Shown in pieces: positions 14,432 through 20,195 of a DNA stretch of 64,000 bases (positions within the stretch are counted from its first letter, which is position 1; every line of letters starts with the position of its first letter). The notes below the pieces were generated by a model, which ran no database searches, was not told the origin of the DNA, and saw nothing but the letters and a program-made list of their open reading frames with translations. The stretch comes from Candidatus Omnitrophota bacterium. Its GTDB lineage: Bacteria; Omnitrophota; Gorgyraeia; Gygaellales; Profunditerraquicolaceae. The stretch lies in NCBI GenBank assembly GCA_028715785.1, contig JAQURC010000004.1, positions 21,885-85,884 on the forward strand, given 5' to 3'. The translations under genes were made by a program, and so were the position numbers.

Positions 14432-14674
14432 TCAGGCGGTTGCCCGTACAAAAATACACCCCGCCAACTCCTTATCCGCCGCAAATTGCGATTGCCCGAT
14501 TTGAAAAACATAGGAAGGAAATTTCTGGATCAACACTATTGACATTCCGGCTAAAACCCCCATCGCCGCAAGTTTTTGGAGTTTCTTATGGTCCTTGGTA
14601 TGGATATAAGCAACTTTGGCTTTTTGGTTTACCTGCAAATTGACAAGAGAAGAAGTAACATCACTTATTTTCAT
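14432..14674 (-). CDS. feoA: Ferrous iron transport protein FeoA.
   Basis: Small SH3-like protein: LQVNQKAKVAYI...KLAAMGVLAGMSIVLIQK. The probable start is the Met at 14674. Confidence 0.7.
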   Translation of the reverse strand: MKISDVTSSLVNLQVNQKAKVAYIHTKDHKKLQKLAAMGVLAGMSIVLIQKFPSYVFQIGQSQFAADKELAGCIFVRATA

Positions 14675-14843
14675 CGGGTTTGCTTCCTTTCTTAAAATAC
14701 TCCGGCCATTTTGGCTTTGGCGGCGTCTCAAAACCGCAATTCGGGCATCTAATAAGCTTGCAACCTTTCATAACAGGGCAACTTTTGCAGGCTTCTTCTG
14801 CCTTTTTCTCGTTAAATTCATATCCGCATAAACTACATTTCAT
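14661..14843 (-). CDS. Small Cys-rich zinc-ribbon protein (60 aa) inside the feo operon. It may be FeoC-like or a FeoB-associated Cys-rich protein.
   Basis: MKCSLCGYEFNEKKAEEACKSCPVMKGCKLIRCPNCGF carries CxxC, CxxC and CxxC pairs. Its ATG overlaps the feoB stop in an ATGA arrangement. It falls below the ORF-track length cutoff as an independent start. Confidence 0.5.
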   Translation of the reverse strand: MKCSLCGYEFNEKKAEEACKSCPVMKGCKLIRCPNCGFETPPKPKWPEYFKKGSKPDENK

Positions 14844-16288
14844 AGGCTGATTCCCAAAATATTTAATATAAGATTCATTATAAATCCTGCGGTAAACGAG
14901 AAAAGCAGGATAAAGACTGAAATCCCCACACCGGTTTTCCAGCCCCTTTCTTTCACATTCATCAAAAATTGCGCGATACAAGGCAAAAACAATGTCAAAG
15001 TTACGCAGGCCACGACCAGCTGATTGCCGGTAAATAACCCCGCCTTTTTAATATCATACAGCCCGCCGGCGCCATAATCTCTCCTAAAGAATCCGAATAA
15101 GAAGGCAACCGCGGTTTTATCCGGCAAGCCAATCCAGCGGATAGGGTATTCTAAAATTTTGGTAAGCAAGCTAAACAGGCCCGTGATCTGGCCGATCCAG
15201 ATCATCATACTTGCCAATATAAACATGGGGAATATCTCCATAAAATACCATTTGACTCTCGTATAGGTTTTGATAAACACATTGGATAATTTAGGCAGCC
15301 GCAGAGGCGGGATTTCCATATAAAACGACGGCGAATCTCCCGGCAACACCTTGGAAGAAAGGAACCCTATTAAAACAAAAACCAATCCTACCACCCCTGC
15401 CCAGATCCACAATCCCTTGCTATTTCCTTCTAGCAAAGAAAGAATTACCCCCAACTGCGCTGCGCAAGGAATGGCTAAAGCGAGCAAAATAGTAGCAATA
15501 ATTCTTTCCCTTTTTGTAGGAAGTGTCCGGGTAACCATTGTCGCCATCGTATCGCACCCCAAGCCAAGGACCATGGGTATTACCGCCCTTCCGGTTAAGC
15601 CAATTTTTTTAAAAATCCTGTCTATCAATAAGGCCAGGCGCGGCAGATAACCCGTATCCTCGATAATTGCAAAGGCGATAAAGAACGTTGTGACGATAGG
15701 TAATATCAAAGCTACGGCATAACGCAGGCCTAAAGTGATCATCCCGTATTCACCCACAAATAATTCACGGAACAAATGCCGGGGGATAATTGAGCTGACT
15801 ACTTGCGTTATCCAGGGATTGATATGATTTTCAAAGATATCTGTCTCAATGAAATCAACCACTGTGCCTGCGCCAAATTCACCCACAAATTTATAGATAC
15901 CACAATAAAGTATTACCAGCAAAATAGGTATGCCCGTAACAGGATTTATCATTACCCTGCTAAGTTTTTCCTTAAACGGCAATCCGGGCTTCGGCAAGTG
16001 CTCTATGGCTCCACTTACAATACTACTTGCTTCCTCCTGCCTGCGTTGAGAAATTATATAAGAAAGCGGCTCCTGAAAATGCGTTTTGGCATGATTTACG
16101 ATTTCCATAATCTGGGCAAAGCTTTCCGCTTCGCTGGATTTCACCAGCGACATAATCTCCTCATCCTCCTGAAGCAACAATAGGCCGATAGAACGCTTAG
16201 AGATGCCGTGGTCCGCTCCTAGTAAATTTTCTATCTTCTCCAAAGAGTTTTCTAAGATATCGCCGGGGTATTTACATGTTTCTGACAT
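14840..16288 (-). CDS. feoB: FeoB C-terminal part (helical GDI-like domain plus polytopic membrane permease), encoded as a separate gene.
   Basis: Gate-motif membrane core with multiple TM segments. It has its own SD GGGAGG 8 nt upstream of the ATG at 16288, and it overlaps the end of the G-domain gene by 17 nt in a different frame. Confidence 0.8.
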   Translation of the reverse strand: MSETCKYPGDILENSLEKIENLLGADHGISKRSIGLLLLQEDEEIMSLVKSSEAESFAQIMEIVNHAKTHFQEPLSYIISQRRQEEASSIVSGAIEHLPKPGLPFKEKLSRVMINPVTGIPILLVILYCGIYKFVGEFGAGTVVDFIETDIFENHINPWITQVVSSIIPRHLFRELFVGEYGMITLGLRYAVALILPIVTTFFIAFAIIEDTGYLPRLALLIDRIFKKIGLTGRAVIPMVLGLGCDTMATMVTRTLPTKRERIIATILLALAIPCAAQLGVILSLLEGNSKGLWIWAGVVGLVFVLIGFLSSKVLPGDSPSFYMEIPPLRLPKLSNVFIKTYTRVKWYFMEIFPMFILASMMIWIGQITGLFSLLTKILEYPIRWIGLPDKTAVAFLFGFFRRDYGAGGLYDIKKAGLFTGNQLVVACVTLTLFLPCIAQFLMNVKERGWKTGVGISVFILLFSFTAGFIMNLILNILGISL

Positions 16289-16850
16289 ATTCTTCAATCC
16301 TCCCTTTCAAGATATCTATGCCTCTGCCTGTGGTCGAGACGGTGGAAACAACAGGAACTTTTAAATCTTTTTCTAAATGCTGCGAGTTTATTTTCATGCC
16401 GATTTTTTCCGCCTCATCGATAATATTCAAAACCAGCACGACCTTAAGTTTGGCCTCGATTAACTGTAATGTAAGGGGCAGCATTCTCTCTAAGTTTTTG
16501 GCATCAACGATATGGATGATGATATCGGGTTTTTCTTCAATCAATATATTCCTGGCCACCCGCTCCTCTTCGGTAATCGGCAGCAATGAATACATGCCCG
16601 GTGTATCGATAACCTCAAGTTCCCTGTCGCCTATTCTGGTTTTTCCTCTGGCTACTTCAACTGTAGTCCCCGGATAATTGGATACCGTAACATATGCCCC
16701 TGTCAGGCGGTTAAACATAACAGATTTACCGACGTTAGGGCTGCCCACAATCGCAATTTTACTCAAATTACCCCTAATCTCTCCCCCTTTCTTGCCGCAA
16801 CAAGAACCTGTTGGCTTAAATCCTTTAAATAATTTGTTAACAAAATCCAT
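16272..16850 (-). CDS. feoB: FeoB N-terminal GTPase (G) domain, encoded as a separate gene.
   Basis: G1 GSPNVGKS, G2 PGTT, G3 DTPG and G4 NIID. An SD GGAG precedes the Met at 16850. The ORF ends exactly at the G-domain / helical-domain boundary. Confidence 0.8.
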   Translation of the reverse strand: MDFVNKLFKGFKPTGSCCGKKGGEIRGNLSKIAIVGSPNVGKSVMFNRLTGAYVTVSNYPGTTVEVARGKTRIGDRELEVIDTPGMYSLLPITEEERVARNILIEEKPDIIIHIVDAKNLERMLPLTLQLIEAKLKVVLVLNIIDEAEKIGMKINSQHLEKDLKVPVVSTVSTTGRGIDILKGRIEEYVRNM

Positions 16851-16887: not shown

Positions 16888-17868
16888 CTAAAATGTATAA
16901 ACAAAAGTAAAAACTACTGAATCGTTTGCATCAGCGTTAGTCCCTGTCACCACACGCTGATACGCTATTAAGGTTTGAATCTTATCATTTGACCAACCAA
17001 ACCCCGGAGCAATGGTCAAATAATTTATATTTGAATCAAGAGTTCTTGCTCCATTTTGTCTTTTATCTCCCTGCAGAAACCCGTTTGCCTCAAACATAAG
17101 ATTGAACCCTTTTGACAGAAAATATTCTACTCCGAAATCATAATTAAGGTAGTTTGCATAACGGGTCTTGACACCGTCAACGTGCGCTTGCTGCGGGAAA
17201 TTGTAGACGGCATCAGCATGAAAAATAAACGGTTTTAATTTCTTGCTAAGATTTATCCCAAACCCCTGATCCCAGGAACCGCCTCCTGATCCGGCACCCA
17301 TCAAATCCGCCCCTAACTTATCAGGATCCGCATTCTCATATTTTCCTGTGGGCATTTTAAGCTGAAACAATCCTGTTATATGAGGCATCCAGCCCTTTTC
17401 TTCAAGGGCACAGTAACGCATAAAAAGATAACTATCGCCAAGGCCTTCTGAATGAGCGCTGGAACCATCCTGTTTGACATAATTTTGCTGATAAACCATC
17501 TGGGCATCAAGCTCAAGCCTATTCGTAAGGCCATATTGGGCAAAAAGCTGTTGCTGAAACTGGTACTTCTTATCACCACCGGGTAAAGAATCATAGTGGC
17601 CATCCGCGTTGAAGGTGCCTCTGGTGCGGTTATAAAAGAAAAATGGCTGGATCACAAACTTGCCTTTGCCGCAAAGCGGCGCTGTCCAAGTAGTAAGCGG
17701 GCCTGCGGAAACCGGCTCCCATTCATCATGCGCTTCGTGGCTTTGCTCAGAGGAAAGCAAACCACCGCCCTCCGGCTTGTGACTTTCACTGTGAGCGAAA
17801 CTATAATCCGCTTGATTCAACAATATAAAACTTACAATCGCCGGAATTAACAATACCCCCTTAAACAT
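16888..17868 (-). CDS. Outer-membrane beta-barrel protein (putative porin) with a His-rich N-terminal segment.
   Basis: Signal peptide MFKGVLLIPAIVSFILLNQADYSFA. A mature His/Glu-rich stretch HSESHKPEGG..HEAHDEW. Alternating amphipathic strands and a C-terminal Phe (TFVYTF). Confidence 0.6.
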   Translation of the reverse strand: MFKGVLLIPAIVSFILLNQADYSFAHSESHKPEGGGLLSSEQSHEAHDEWEPVSAGPLTTWTAPLCGKGKFVIQPFFFYNRTRGTFNADGHYDSLPGGDKKYQFQQQLFAQYGLTNRLELDAQMVYQQNYVKQDGSSAHSEGLGDSYLFMRYCALEEKGWMPHITGLFQLKMPTGKYENADPDKLGADLMGAGSGGGSWDQGFGINLSKKLKPFIFHADAVYNFPQQAHVDGVKTRYANYLNYDFGVEYFLSKGFNLMFEANGFLQGDKRQNGARTLDSNINYLTIAPGFGWSNDKIQTLIAYQRVVTGTNADANDSVVFTFVYTF

Positions 17869-17900
17869 AAATTTCTCTCCCTTATCCACAACCCTGTCCT

Positions 17901-18620
17901 TTAGAAAAGCACTCCTACAATCATCCTGGTCTGTAAATCATCCGCCCTTTCATTCAGCCCAAATACAGCCCCTGCCGCTATAAACGCTTTTTTAAAAGCA
18001 TATGAAACCGTCGGCCCAAGAGCATATTTCTCTTTCGGATAATTCCCTTTGGATTCGAAGCCGGCCTTAAACCGGGGCGTAAACGCGTAGTTAATACCCG
18101 CCGCATACTCATGGTCGGTTTTTCCTTCCCTTTCAAGGTTACGCTTAATAATCTGGTTATAGCTAAGGTTAAAACCGCCGATGTCTTTAGCCAATACGAG
18201 TTTTGCCTCTCCGACGTTGGGCTTAGAAAAATCATCATCACGAATGTATTCAAAATAAAGGAGCGGGTCAACAAAGAATTTACCCTTTTCTCCGATCCGA
18301 TAACGCGTCCTCAATTTAAACCCCTCGTATTCGCTGTCATTTTCGTATTTCTTATTTTTAAATTTCCACGCCTGGTACATTGCAACATCCCAGCGGCTGG
18401 TTATGCCGTACTCCAGTTCAACCTGCGGCTTGACAACATTAATGTTGGACTTATGCAAATTTGGCACTTCGCTTGTTACATATGTTTCAAGTTCCCACAT
18501 CCCTTTTGGCATAATCATATACTCATAGGTCCAGACATAACTTCTTCTATCCGCATAACTAGAGGAGGTAAATCCAAACAGTATCGCTAAACTAAATATC
18601 GCCAATAAACATTTTTTCAT
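17901..18620 (-). CDS. Outer-membrane beta-barrel protein (small OMP).
   Basis: Signal peptide MKKCLLAIFSLAILFGFTSSSYA. Aromatic-rich alternating strands and a C-terminal VLF. Confidence 0.55.
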   Translation of the reverse strand: MKKCLLAIFSLAILFGFTSSSYADRRSYVWTYEYMIMPKGMWELETYVTSEVPNLHKSNINVVKPQVELEYGITSRWDVAMYQAWKFKNKKYENDSEYEGFKLRTRYRIGEKGKFFVDPLLYFEYIRDDDFSKPNVGEAKLVLAKDIGGFNLSYNQIIKRNLEREGKTDHEYAAGINYAFTPRFKAGFESKGNYPKEKYALGPTVSYAFKKAFIAAGAVFGLNERADDLQTRMIVGVLF

Positions 18621-18640
18621 TTTATCTGCCTCCTTAACAT

Positions 18641-18669
18641 TGATTTTGAGTTTCATTATCATTACTATC
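18641..18669 (-). promoter_or_regulatory. Candidate Fur box upstream of the small OMP gene.
   Basis: The reverse complement GATAGTAATGATAATGAAACTCAAAATCA resembles the GATAATGATAATCATTATC consensus. It is near-identical to the motif at 19608-19632. Confidence 0.45.
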
Positions 18670-18691
18670 CCAAAAAAAAAGGCCCTCCTTT

Positions 18692-19591
18692 CTAAATAAA
18701 AGTAAATAGATATCCCAGCGCCAGGCCCATAACGGAGACCAGGCTTAAATATATTATCAACACCTTCGCCCCGAATTCTTTCCTGAGCACTAATATCGTC
18801 CCGTAACTTGTTATGGGGCCGACTGATAGAAGGACAAAACCCGCTCCTCTATCCAATCCCTGCTTGATAAGAGCATCAACCAAGGGCACGCCCATGGTTG
18901 CGCACATATAGGTAACCAAACCAAAAATTAAAGCAAACAAATAGCCTGTGCCTCCTTTTAAATAATGTTTCACCAGGTGGCCAACCGGCATTATTGAATC
19001 CACGGAAGCTGCCATGGCCAAGCCAAGAAGCGTTTCTTTGCCGATATCTTTGGGCATCTGAATATAGGCAAACCTAAAGACGGATACCAGCCGAGAACCA
19101 AAAGGCTTTTTTGTTGTTTTAGGTTCAAGGTGGCCAAGATTCGATTCGCCGCAATTACAACCATCGTTGCTCTTTAGGATCTTTTTTAACCTAATCCTGT
19201 TGCCAATCAAACCGGCAGTTATTCCCATCAGGATTACCGAAAAGAAAAGATAAACGGCAAATTTAAGCCCCAGTAATTTAGCTGTGACAATAAGGGCATT
19301 TATAGAGGTGGCAGGAGTGGCAACAAGCATTGCCAGTATAGGACCTAAAGAAGCGCCTTTCTTACGAAAACTAACGGCAATAGGTAAACACCCCCAGCAG
19401 CAGACGGGGATAAGCGTTCCAACCAGCGTGGACCATAAAACCCCTTTAAGGCCCTTGCCTCCCAAATGCTTGTTTATCCAGGCATCCGGGATGAACTCAT
19501 GAATGATCCCGCTTAGAAGAAAACCAATCGCCAAAGCAGGGGCCATTTCGATAAAATAATGCTTAAATGAATTAATAAAATTAACCGCCAT
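18692..19591 (-). CDS. DUF318-family permease (YraQ/ArsP-like) with a Cys-rich CCWGC motif.
   Basis: Eight or more TM helices in a two-repeat topology and a VCCWGCLP motif, positioned where the ArsP family has TPFCSCS. It is the first structural gene downstream of fur. Confidence 0.5.
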   Translation of the reverse strand: MAVNFINSFKHYFIEMAPALAIGFLLSGIIHEFIPDAWINKHLGGKGLKGVLWSTLVGTLIPVCCWGCLPIAVSFRKKGASLGPILAMLVATPATSINALIVTAKLLGLKFAVYLFFSVILMGITAGLIGNRIRLKKILKSNDGCNCGESNLGHLEPKTTKKPFGSRLVSVFRFAYIQMPKDIGKETLLGLAMAASVDSIMPVGHLVKHYLKGGTGYLFALIFGLVTYMCATMGVPLVDALIKQGLDRGAGFVLLSVGPITSYGTILVLRKEFGAKVLIIYLSLVSVMGLALGYLFTFI

Positions 19592-19607
19592 AGCAATCTG
19601 CCTTTGT

Positions 19608-19632
19608 GATTTTGAGTTTCATTCTCAATATA
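19608..19632 (-). promoter_or_regulatory. Candidate Fur box upstream of the permease gene.
   Basis: TGATTTTGAGTTTCATTCTCAATAT shares 20 nt with the motif at 18641-18660. It is made of hexamer repeats of the NATWAT type. Confidence 0.45.
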
Positions 19633-19648
19633 TTATTAAAAAATATAT

Positions 19649-20083
19649 TTACCTCTTACACCTCTTGCATACGCCGTAAAGTTCCATGCGGTGCCTTTGG
19701 GGATAAAACCCGTGCTGTTTAGCCAGCTTTTCCTGCAGACTTTCGATCTGGGGATCCACTACCTCCACGAACCTGCCGCACTTGGTACAGATAAGATGAT
19801 CGTGGTGCTGATGCCCATAGAGATGCTCGTATCTGGTTGTGCCGTCCTCAAAGCTCAGCTCGCGGCAAAGGCCGCATTCGCAAAGCAATTTAAGCGTCCG
19901 GTAGATCGTGGCATATCCTATCGCCGGATATTTCTTCTGGACGGACATATAGAGTTCGTTCGCGGTCAAGTGCTTATCAATGCCTAAAAAAATATGCAGT
20001 ATCTCTTTTCTTTGCTGGCTATGCTTGAGATCTTTAGTCGCAAGGTAATCTTCGAACATCTTTGTTTCTTTTTCCGAGACCAT
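19649..20083 (-). CDS. fur: Ferric uptake regulator family transcription factor.
   Basis: A winged-helix N-domain, HHDHLICTKCG and a C-terminal CKRCKR metal site. 144 aa. Confidence 0.85.
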   Translation of the reverse strand: MVSEKETKMFEDYLATKDLKHSQQRKEILHIFLGIDKHLTANELYMSVQKKYPAIGYATIYRTLKLLCECGLCRELSFEDGTTRYEHLYGHQHHDHLICTKCGRFVEVVDPQIESLQEKLAKQHGFYPQRHRMELYGVCKRCKR

Positions 20084-20104
20084 AATAAGCCGTCCTTAGG
20101 TTAT

Positions 20105-20130
20105 GATATTGAAAATCGATATCAATATTA
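20105..20130 (-). promoter_or_regulatory. Candidate Fur box (autoregulatory) upstream of fur.
   Basis: GATATTGAAAATCGATATCAATATTA contains four NATWAT hexamers with dyad symmetry. Confidence 0.4.
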
Positions 20131-20195
20131 ACACAAATAAAAATACCTGTCAAGAAAATAATTTATAGTTTTACATTGTTCAGGCATTGCAAGCT

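Follow-up and report, generated by a model that had tools for sequence, protein, structure and literature searches.

A ferrous iron transporter FeoB encoded as two overlapping genes in a Candidatus Omnitrophota bacterium

The feoB locus in the window (the whole stretch of 64,000 nucleotides analysed here) most probably encodes a natural two-subunit FeoB, consisting of a GTPase (G) subunit and a membrane subunit. The two genes overlap, their arrangement is conserved among relatives, together they supply a complete set of FeoB domains, and both are under purifying selection. The G domain and the helical domain are parted within the variable linker that joins them, and no part of FeoB is missing. 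The split FeoB is a genuine variant of a well-known system whose identity is unchanged, and it is only modestly surprising because the layout is common to many anaerobic bacteria and the locus already stands as two genes in GenBank.

Gene anatomy and operon context

The feoB pair is encoded on the minus strand, which the original prediction had left unstated, and comprises the following features:

16850 (ATG)..16272, minus strand: feoB G-subunit gene, encoding a 192-aa stand-alone FeoB GTPase (Pfam FeoB_N)
16298..16306, minus strand: Shine-Dalgarno-like AAGGGAGGA of the membrane-subunit gene, read in the sequence
16272..16288, minus strand: overlap of the two feoB genes, ATGTCAGAAACATGTAA, 17 nt
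16288..14840, minus strand: feoB membrane-subunit gene, 482 aa (FeoB_Cyto, two Gate domains, FeoB_C)

The G-domain reading frame ends, as originally reported, in ...GIDILKGRIEEYVRNM (RIEEYVRNM) followed by a TAA stop at 16274..16272. The second reading frame had been said to begin at an ATG 14 nt upstream of this stop in another frame, and this is what is seen: it starts at ATG 16288..16286 in the +1 frame relative to the G gene, its product begins MSETCKYPGDILENSLEKIE..., and it terminates at a TGA (14842..14840). The G subunit possesses an N-terminal extension of ~28 aa bearing an SCCG motif, and the G1 (GSPNVGKS), G3 (DTPG) and G4 (NIID) motifs can be recognized by eye in its translation. 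GenBank holds two separate CDSs with exactly these boundaries; MDD5465578.1, named 'FeoB small GTPase domain-containing protein', is identical to the G subunit, and MDD5465577.1, named 'ferrous iron transporter B', is 100% identical to the membrane subunit.

The split can be placed where the G domain meets the helical domain, as the original prediction had it, because the Pfam domains divide between the two reading frames. The first matches FeoB_N (E 1.6e-59, residues 31-183, 154 of 156 profile positions), while the second contains FeoB_Cyto, Gate, FeoB_C and Gate in that order, with the helical domain FeoB_Cyto (PF17910) at residues 9-95 (E 1.3e-12), the two Gate domains at E 7e-30 and FeoB_C at residues 295-344 (E 5.8e-13). 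The parts by which a FeoB is recognized are all present, namely an N-terminal GTPase domain, a helical FeoB_Cyto domain and a polytopic membrane core with two Gate motifs and FeoB_C. On the 594 positions of the TIGR00437 profile, the G subunit covers positions 1-155 with 206.5 bits and the membrane subunit positions 196-591 with 224.7 bits; each score lies below the cut-off of 315.65 and their sum lies above it. No single polypeptide passes this cut-off as a whole FeoB, the protein being divided between two genes at a conserved split. When joined, the two halves are colinear across the junction with the NFeoB crystal-structure sequences 3k53, 3a1s and 2wjg, with gaps of only 1-3 residues; the G subunit matches NFeoB structure sequences at E ~1e-37, and the helical domain of the membrane subunit is colinear with that of 3k53 and 3a1s. 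A PDB sequence search with the concatenated protein returned soluble N-terminal FeoB fragments only; none of the chains included the membrane part.

The surrounding operon contains these further genes:

19649..20083, minus strand: Fur-family regulator gene at the operon head (Pfam FUR, E 1e-36)
18692..19591, minus strand: ArsP_1-type permease gene at the operon head (Pfam ArsP_1, E 1.7e-36)
17901..18662, minus strand: putative outer-membrane beta-barrel protein gene (Pfam Phenol_MetA_deg)
16888..17889, minus strand: putative outer-membrane beta-barrel protein gene (Pfam Phenol_MetA_deg)
14661..14843, minus strand: gene for a 60-aa Cys-rich protein with seven cysteines, zinc-ribbon / rubredoxin-like (open reading frame translation)
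14432..14674, minus strand: feoA, 80 aa (Pfam FeoA, E 2.5e-11)

The association of feoB with feoA and with iron-responsive regulation is read here from gene context, with feoA two genes downstream of the feoB membrane gene and a Fur-family gene at the head. The top sigma-70-like match of the region in a promoter scan lies at 20153..20125, in a region whose total matches do not exceed the shuffle expectation. The two beta-barrel genes match Phenol_MetA_deg at E 4.5e-07 and 5e-04, of which the latter (20.6 bits) is under the curated cut-off of 22; a gap of 37 nt separates this gene pair from the G-subunit gene downstream, with which it probably shares a transcript.

Immediately downstream, the ATG of the Cys-rich gene overlaps the feoB stop as ATGA, and the final 14 nt of the Cys-rich gene overlap the start of feoA. 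No family of Pfam or NCBIfam matches the Cys-rich protein above threshold. The gene directly follows feoB in 63 of 81 related loci, split and fused alike, and is a conserved companion of this FeoB subfamily. A role as an adaptor specific to the split form was considered and rejected, the gene being found at 38 of 42 fused loci as against 25 of 39 split loci.

Conservation of the split among relatives

Every one of the nearest 120 G-domain clusters (71-90% identity) is a stand-alone protein, with lengths of 164-221 aa; of the nearest 120 membrane-half clusters, 115 measure 445-493 aa. Among the 81 related genome loci, 42 are fused and 39 are split, and in each of the split ones the membrane gene occupies the +1 frame. 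The pattern among relatives, which the original prediction had left to comparison, is not one of fusion throughout: every relative of at least 79% identity carries a split feoB. The overlapping adjacent pair is found in metagenome-assembled genomes of Omnitrophota, Sedimentisphaerales and Elusimicrobiota, and the split also occurs in the isolates Caloranaerobacter azorensis DSM 13643, Brassicibacter mesophilus DSM 24659, Geosporobacter subterraneus DSM 17957, Anaerosalibacter bizertensis and Desulfotruncus alcoholivorax DSM 16058; cultured Clostridia type strains are among the carriers. A search of a representative library returned mixed lengths with many contig-end fragments and is unsuited to counting split against fused forms. 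The N-terminal Cys-Cys extension of the G protein is present in fused relatives as well, and its interpretation as a compensation for the split was rejected on this ground.

A different origin for the two reading frames would be a frameshift introduced by sequencing or assembly, or a pseudogene in decay, in which what truly is, or was, one fused feoB has been broken by a 1-nt indel. One indel within the ~38-nt stretch from the upstream TGA in the membrane-gene frame to the G-gene TAA would merge the frames, and this origin draws some further weight from the derivation of the window from a metagenome-assembled genome and from the few close relatives that are fused (P0197, P0229, P0236, P0239 and P0240). 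However, the identical frame relation and ATG codon recur in more than 100 protein clusters and 39 loci, spanning different phyla, assemblers and isolate genomes, and dN/dS is ~0.04-0.17 in either half, indicating purifying selection. Both halves also have a close relative (same 90%-identity clusters) on another contig, of 29 kb (NCBI, Logan), and the fused relatives possess extra linkers of ~10-45 aa that are mutually non-homologous, none being a simple in-frame version of the window sequence. An artefact or decayed gene is exceedingly improbable here and, by these sequence comparisons, effectively refuted for the split-FeoB family as a whole. The earlier preference for a genuine gene split over a frameshift artefact is thus upheld by the recurrence of the split in independent assemblies and isolates and by purifying selection on both halves.

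The junction and expression of the two genes

The perfect Shine-Dalgarno sequence originally claimed at a spacing of 8 to 9 nt is present, with AAGGGAGGA at 16306..16298 lying 9 nt from the ATG (10 nt from its GGAGG core). The G subunit contains a conserved helix, ...LKGRIEEY, whose Lys-Gly-Arg codons encompass the Shine-Dalgarno sequence, and the membrane-gene ATG itself consists of the Tyr codon TAT of the G subunit together with the G of the following codon. Split loci carry a purine-rich motif at the equivalent place upstream of the membrane-gene start, with a core spacing of ~10-12 nt. Its strength is uneven across split relatives, only 14 of 39 reaching a match of at least 5/6 to AGGAGG 4-12 nt upstream of the start, as against 4 of 42 fused loci. 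The junction arrangement exceeds chance, because a +1-frame ATG lies at codon offset 152 after the G1 motif, a conserved Tyr codon, in 33 of 39 split loci and in only 8 of 42 fused loci. Three split loci use GTG or TTG in place of ATG as the start codon. In the window the earliest possible start is a TTG at 16297, between the Shine-Dalgarno sequence and the ATG; it was rejected as unconserved in relatives, whereas the ATG at 16288..16286 is conserved among them and is the start used by GenBank. The overlap ranges from 8 to 44 nt across 38 split loci, mostly 17 or 20 nt, and the membrane gene is always in the +1 frame, a constancy that arises because the start ATG is formed from TAT + G.

This same constancy could be read as a sign of programmed +1 frameshifting in the overlap, with AGGGAGG acting as stimulator in the manner of prfB and with a full-length fused FeoB as product, either alone or beside a separate G protein. 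All split loci have the membrane gene in the +1 frame, the overlap is preceded by an SD-like element, and frameshifting and internal initiation may coexist at conserved frame transitions (PMC3711429). Yet the +1 relation is already accounted for by the TAT + G origin of the ATG, both the length of the overlap and the sequence between ATG and stop vary among relatives, and no common slippery motif is seen in the overlaps of split relatives. The final codons in the window are AAC-ATG-TAA, and a P-site tRNA slipping +1 from AUG to UGU would not re-pair. In prfB the SD-like stimulator lies ~3 nt from the stop, whereas here the core ends 24 nt from the stop codon (16299 to 16274), so that the conserved shift site with a close stimulator that marks a prfB-like frameshift is absent. 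What is conserved is instead an initiation signal, a start whose codon position is fixed and which follows a purine-rich tract. Frameshifting is very improbable.

The original prediction had further described the two genes as translationally coupled, and this stands in part. The downstream start lies inside the end of the upstream reading frame in a conserved position, as expected of a coupled pair, and the 17-nt overlap with its internal Shine-Dalgarno sequence makes coupling plausible. On the other hand, folding of the junction RNA against shuffled controls detected no hairpin masking the membrane-gene start above those controls (z = +0.46), and coupling is unproven because no RNA structure occludes this start. 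The Shine-Dalgarno sequence is strong and probably accessible to free ribosomes; with no RNA structure over the start, the membrane gene could also initiate on its own.

It was also suggested originally that a detached G protein might be independently regulated or made in a different amount, and such a protein might further serve other partners. Separate subunits could in principle differ in ratio, the membrane gene owns a strong and unstructured Shine-Dalgarno sequence, and matches to the G protein alone are very numerous in databases. Against this, at every examined locus the G gene lies immediately before the membrane gene and overlaps with it, the promoter scan yielded no evidence of an internal promoter, and the two halves are alike both in identity to their relatives (76-80%) and in dN/dS; many of the short database matches are moreover contig-end fragments and not free-standing genes. 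A functionally independent G protein is therefore unlikely. Both genes overlap within one Fur-headed operon, which favours co-expression and leaves independent regulation without support; co-translation or coupling of the pair is plausible.

Proposed mechanism, evolution and known systems

The following scheme would accommodate these observations. An ancestral single feoB has probably been divided within the short, variable linker that separates GTPase and helical domains, yielding a soluble G subunit of 21 kDa and a 53-kDa subunit that comprises helical domain and membrane pore. The last helix of the G subunit supplies the codons in which the ribosome binding site (KGR giving AAAGGGAGG) and the ATG (Y-V giving TATG) of the second gene are written. 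Both genes would be transcribed in the Fur-headed iron-uptake operon, followed by the Cys-rich gene and then feoA, each overlapping its predecessor. The two products are most likely made together, ribosomes on the G gene terminating 14 nt beyond the membrane-gene start and near the strong Shine-Dalgarno sequence. By analogy with structures of the fused proteins, the subunits would re-join non-covalently through the interface between G domain and helical domain known from NFeoB crystal structures, and the re-assembled pair would be expected to act as an ordinary GTP-regulated Fe2+ importer.

Fused and split forms have interchanged at least 7 times among the 81 loci in bootstrapped trees, neighbour joining giving a crude estimate of 7-11. 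It is conceivable, although rather doubtful, that the boundary between G domain and helical domain serves as an evolutionary toggle and that the GTPase in the split state is a dissociable switch subunit. If so, the ...KGRIEEY(V/A) helix would already hold both a Shine-Dalgarno sequence (AAAGGGAGG) and a +1-frame ATG (TAT-G), such that a single linker indel downstream would convert a fused FeoB into an expressible two-gene system and an insertion would revert it. The GTPase would then bind and release the channel subunit with its nucleotide cycle, as a G protein does its effector, and the split forms would offer a natural test system for FeoB as a GTP-gated channel or an active transporter.

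These forms bear in any case on the control of the membrane pore by the FeoB GTPase. The wide occurrence of naturally split FeoB indicates that the covalent link to the G domain is dispensable, and it makes available for biochemistry and structural work a G subunit that stands alone and, at 482 aa, a smaller membrane subunit, experimentally accessible because several cultured Clostridia are carriers. A modest consequence for annotation is that the pair should be treated as one transporter, and not as a pseudogene or as an orphan 'small GTPase' beside a truncated transporter.

A split FeoB was not found in the full-text literature consulted, including the main Feo evolution paper (PMC8749426), PMC8980893, PMC10353542 and a methanogen survey (PMC8351635), a scope that covers neither of the subscription reviews (Cartron 2006, Lau 2016); text searches of PMC8749426 and PMC8980893 gave no description of one. 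The word 'split' in the H. pylori paper PMC10353542 refers to feoA and feoB at different loci. The magnetosome genes mad17 and mad30 were rejected as a split FeoB, since mad30 is homologous to feoA and mad17 to feoB (PMC9376291).

FeoA-FeoB fusion proteins, described in PMC8980893 and PMC8749426 from Bacteroides fragilis and Porphyromonas gingivalis, are regarded there by Feo specialists as informative on the parts that must interact. They likewise reshape the operon by fusion or fission of Feo domains, but represent the opposite event, FeoA being joined to the FeoB N-terminus where here FeoB is divided. The GeneTack frame-transition clusters (PMC3711429), whose conserved overlapping pairs are assigned to translational coupling or gene fission, also show a conserved transition between adjacent coding regions with a downstream start near the upstream stop; their start lies at the stop, however, whereas the feoB membrane gene starts 14 nt inside the upstream gene, and FeoB is unnamed in that survey and its two text supplementary files. 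A further close comparison is the canonical single-chain FeoB (E. coli type; TIGR00437 / NF007105), whose soluble NFeoB part has been solved in 3hyt, 3k53, 3a1s and others. It shares with the split form an equal domain set and order, a colinear sequence, the G1-G5 motifs, a feoA in the operon and a nearby Fur regulator. It differs in being one polypeptide, whereas here the G domain is separate with a gene overlap of 17 nt, the G subunit carries the additional ~28-aa extension with its Cys-Cys motif, and either half alone falls under the TIGR00437 cut-off.

Anatomy of the split feoB

The feoB of the window is carried by two overlapping genes, one for the GTPase domain (G gene) and one for the helical and transmembrane domains (membrane gene):

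16850 (ATG) to 16274..16272 (TAA), minus strand: G gene, 192 aa by ORF reading, protein ending in ...GIDILKGRIEEYVRNM
16288..16286 (ATG) to 14842..14840 (TGA), minus strand: membrane gene, 482 aa by ORF reading
16306..16298, minus strand: Shine-Dalgarno-like sequence (SD) AAGGGAGGA, 9 nt before the membrane-gene ATG

The G-gene stop lies 14 nt downstream of the membrane-gene start, and the genes overlap by 17 nt (ATGTCAGAAACATGTAA), with the membrane gene in the +1 frame. Pfam finds FeoB_N in the G protein (E 1.6e-59) and FeoB_Cyto, Gate, FeoB_C and Gate in the 482-aa protein. The NCBIfam model TIGR00437 (feoB) matches the G protein over profile positions 1-155 (206.5 bits) and the membrane protein over positions 196-591 (224.7 bits); either half alone falls below the whole-protein cut-off of 315.65, and the two scores summed exceed it. 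ORF coordinates, overlap, SD and both family searches bear out every detail of the split as first observed.

Both translations were concatenated (674 aa) and searched against the sequences of solved structures (PDB). The N-terminal FeoB structures 3k53, 3a1s and 2wjg, with about 25 others, are colinear across position 192/193 with gaps of 1-3 residues, and judged by these alignments no sequence is lost at the junction. All PDB matches were soluble N-terminal FeoB fragments of <=285 residues, none spanning the membrane domain. When 81 related FeoBs are aligned, the split point falls in a short variable linker that joins the final G-domain helix (...L-K/R-x-x-I-x-x-Y) to the first helix of the helical domain (...Y-D-x-x-I-E); in fused proteins this linker has about 10-12 residues.

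Conservation of the split among relatives

A frameshift artefact or pseudogene would also produce two reading frames; this explanation was rejected on the evidence of database clusters, isolate genomes, dN/dS and GenBank CDSs. The 120 best database clusters for the G protein (71-90% identity) consist without exception of stand-alone proteins, 164-221 aa in length; for the membrane half, 115 of the best 120 clusters measure 445-493 aa. A second contig of 29 kb contributes a member to the 90%-identity cluster of each window protein, and GenBank annotates two CDSs with identical boundaries (MDD5465578.1, 'FeoB small GTPase domain-containing protein', and MDD5465577.1, 'ferrous iron transporter B'). 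The two genes also lie side by side, overlapping by 17-20 nt, on contigs of an Omnitrophota genome (487 kb), a Sedimentisphaerales MAG and an Elusimicrobiota MAG. Scanning a single genome per species gave 80 loci at 52-80% identity; these, the three loci just named and the window made up the scored set, in which 81 loci have both halves on the contig, 39 split and 42 fused. Because genomes of isolates also carry the split (Caloranaerobacter azorensis DSM 13643, Brassicibacter mesophilus DSM 24659, Geosporobacter subterraneus DSM 17957, Anaerosalibacter bizertensis, Anaerosalibacter sp. ND1 and Desulfotruncus alcoholivorax DSM 16058), mis-assembled metagenomes are excluded as its general cause. 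Both halves have pairwise dN/dS values of 0.04-0.17, with synonymous sites saturated in most pairs; in the unsaturated pair L001/L054 the G half has 0.17 and the membrane half 0.08. The original view of the split as genuine is upheld by this conservation and by the dN/dS values.

One split locus (L026, JACRDV010000067.1) lies in a 'Methanobacteriota archaeon' MAG; its membrane half is 61% identical to that of the window, its candidate membrane-gene start is GTG, and it may reflect horizontal transfer or mis-binning.

Membrane-gene start and history of the split

Relative to the G gene, the membrane gene of every split locus is read in the +1 frame; the overlaps span 8-44 nt and in most cases are 17 or 20 nt. 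The ATG of the membrane gene straddles the Tyr codon of a conserved ...IEEY(V/A) and the base that follows it (TAT-G), and the Lys-Gly-Arg codons just upstream encode the purine-rich SD. A +1-frame ATG exactly 152 codons past the GTPase motif G1 is present in 33 of 39 split loci but only 8 of 42 fused ones; three further split loci start at a GTG or TTG nearby. About a fifth of fused genes also have TAT-G at this codon, which suggests a site pre-adapted for splitting. A TTG at 16297, the start in a mechanical ORF list, was rejected as unconserved.

The simplest reading is that the two genes are co-transcribed and co-translated. Ribosomes finishing the G gene would stop 14 nt beyond the strong SD-ATG of the membrane gene, and the two products would re-form the usual contact between G and helical domains non-covalently. 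Shuffled sequence folds at least as well as the junction RNA (z = +0.46), and free ribosomes could therefore also initiate at the membrane-gene start; translational coupling in the strict form is putative. Programmed +1 frameshifting in the overlap is unlikely, since the length and sequence of the overlap are not conserved, a P-site tRNA on AUG would be unable to re-pair at +1, and the stop codon comes 24 nt after the end of the SD-like core. In all loci examined the two genes are neighbours and overlap, so the proposal that a separate G gene allows independent regulation finds no support.

In a neighbour-joining tree of the nearest membrane halves and fused outgroups, split forms make a compact clade with the fused P0239 at its base, and fused representatives lie outside it except for four nested within it (P0197 and the trio P0229/P0236/P0240). 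Between ...GRIEE(Y/F) and DIL(E/Q)ISLE... these four have additional linkers of about 10-45 aa that are not homologous to one another, which looks like secondary re-fusion. A whole-FeoB tree of the 81 loci requires a minimum of 9 split/fused changes (7-11 across 100 bootstrap replicates) and contains a split/fused sister pair, L009/L013, with 91% support. Both trees are crude neighbour-joining trees, leaving the direction and number of events uncertain; on their topology the state clearly changed repeatedly. The long linkers (the four proteins and L013 3232-5431) are exemplified by ...EAFVSGGACGRRPREIQGLLPVSPLEAKLAQQTARAVRHKDTTDIFQ...; that of P0236 and L013 has a G-protein tail and a membrane-protein N-terminal tail one after the other, the pattern to be expected if re-fusion occurred by insertion.

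Accessory parts, probable operon and known Feo systems

Further features accompany the pair:

14661..14843, minus strand: 60-aa Cys-rich protein directly after feoB, seven cysteines, MKCSLCGYEFNE...C..CP..K.CKLIRCPNCGFETPP
16763..16850, minus strand: N-terminal extension of the G protein, residues 1-29, absent from E. coli-type FeoB
19649..20083, minus strand: Fur-family regulator, preceded closely by the region's best sigma-70-like match
18692..19591, minus strand: ArsP_1-type permease, second in the cluster
17901..18662 and 16888..17889, minus strand: two putative outer-membrane barrel genes, Phenol_MetA_deg-like, the second match below the Pfam cut-off

In 63 of 81 loci (25/39 split, 38/42 fused) the Cys-rich gene directly follows feoB, overlapping it in most cases by ATGA; it is a conserved companion of this FeoB subfamily, split or fused alike. 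No Pfam or NCBIfam family scores above threshold (weak rubredoxin and zinc-ribbon matches only); the protein may be an unrecognised third Feo component, perhaps a FeoC analogue. It is also seen at L001 7008-7385, L033 2983-3165 and L013 5431-5613, and is fused to FeoA in L001, L006, L054 and L012. In many relatives FeoA, downstream of feoB, is not a free 80-aa protein (L003 7174-7818, L004 7070-7828, L007-L025) but the C-terminal domain of a DtxR-like protein of about 213 aa (Fe_dep_repr_C + FeoA). The FeoA module, joined to either partner, thus moves between architectures as readily as the G domain.

In the N-terminal Cys-Cys extension a conserved SCCG motif (relatives have SCHG or CxC) comes after an apparently amphipathic stretch (MDFVNKLFKGFK). 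Because fused members carry this extension as well as split ones, it is a trait of the subfamily and does not compensate for the split; a role in metal sensing or membrane binding is possible.

The G gene begins 37 nt beyond the barrel genes and is followed by the membrane gene (17-nt overlap), the Cys-rich gene (ATGA overlap) and feoA (14-nt overlap). This arrangement suggests that 16888..20153 and the feo genes form one iron-uptake operon with its own outer-membrane channel.

FeoA-FeoB fusions have been described and used in arguments on Feo mechanism (PMC8980893; PMC8749426). No description of a split of FeoB itself was found in the openly accessible full-text literature, and the annotation pipeline already assigns standard separate names to both halves. 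The split FeoB is therefore real, widespread and visible in databases, and apparently not discussed in the literature. Compared with known FeoB, the window pair matches in domain content, operon partners and sequence, and departs only in not being a single polypeptide.
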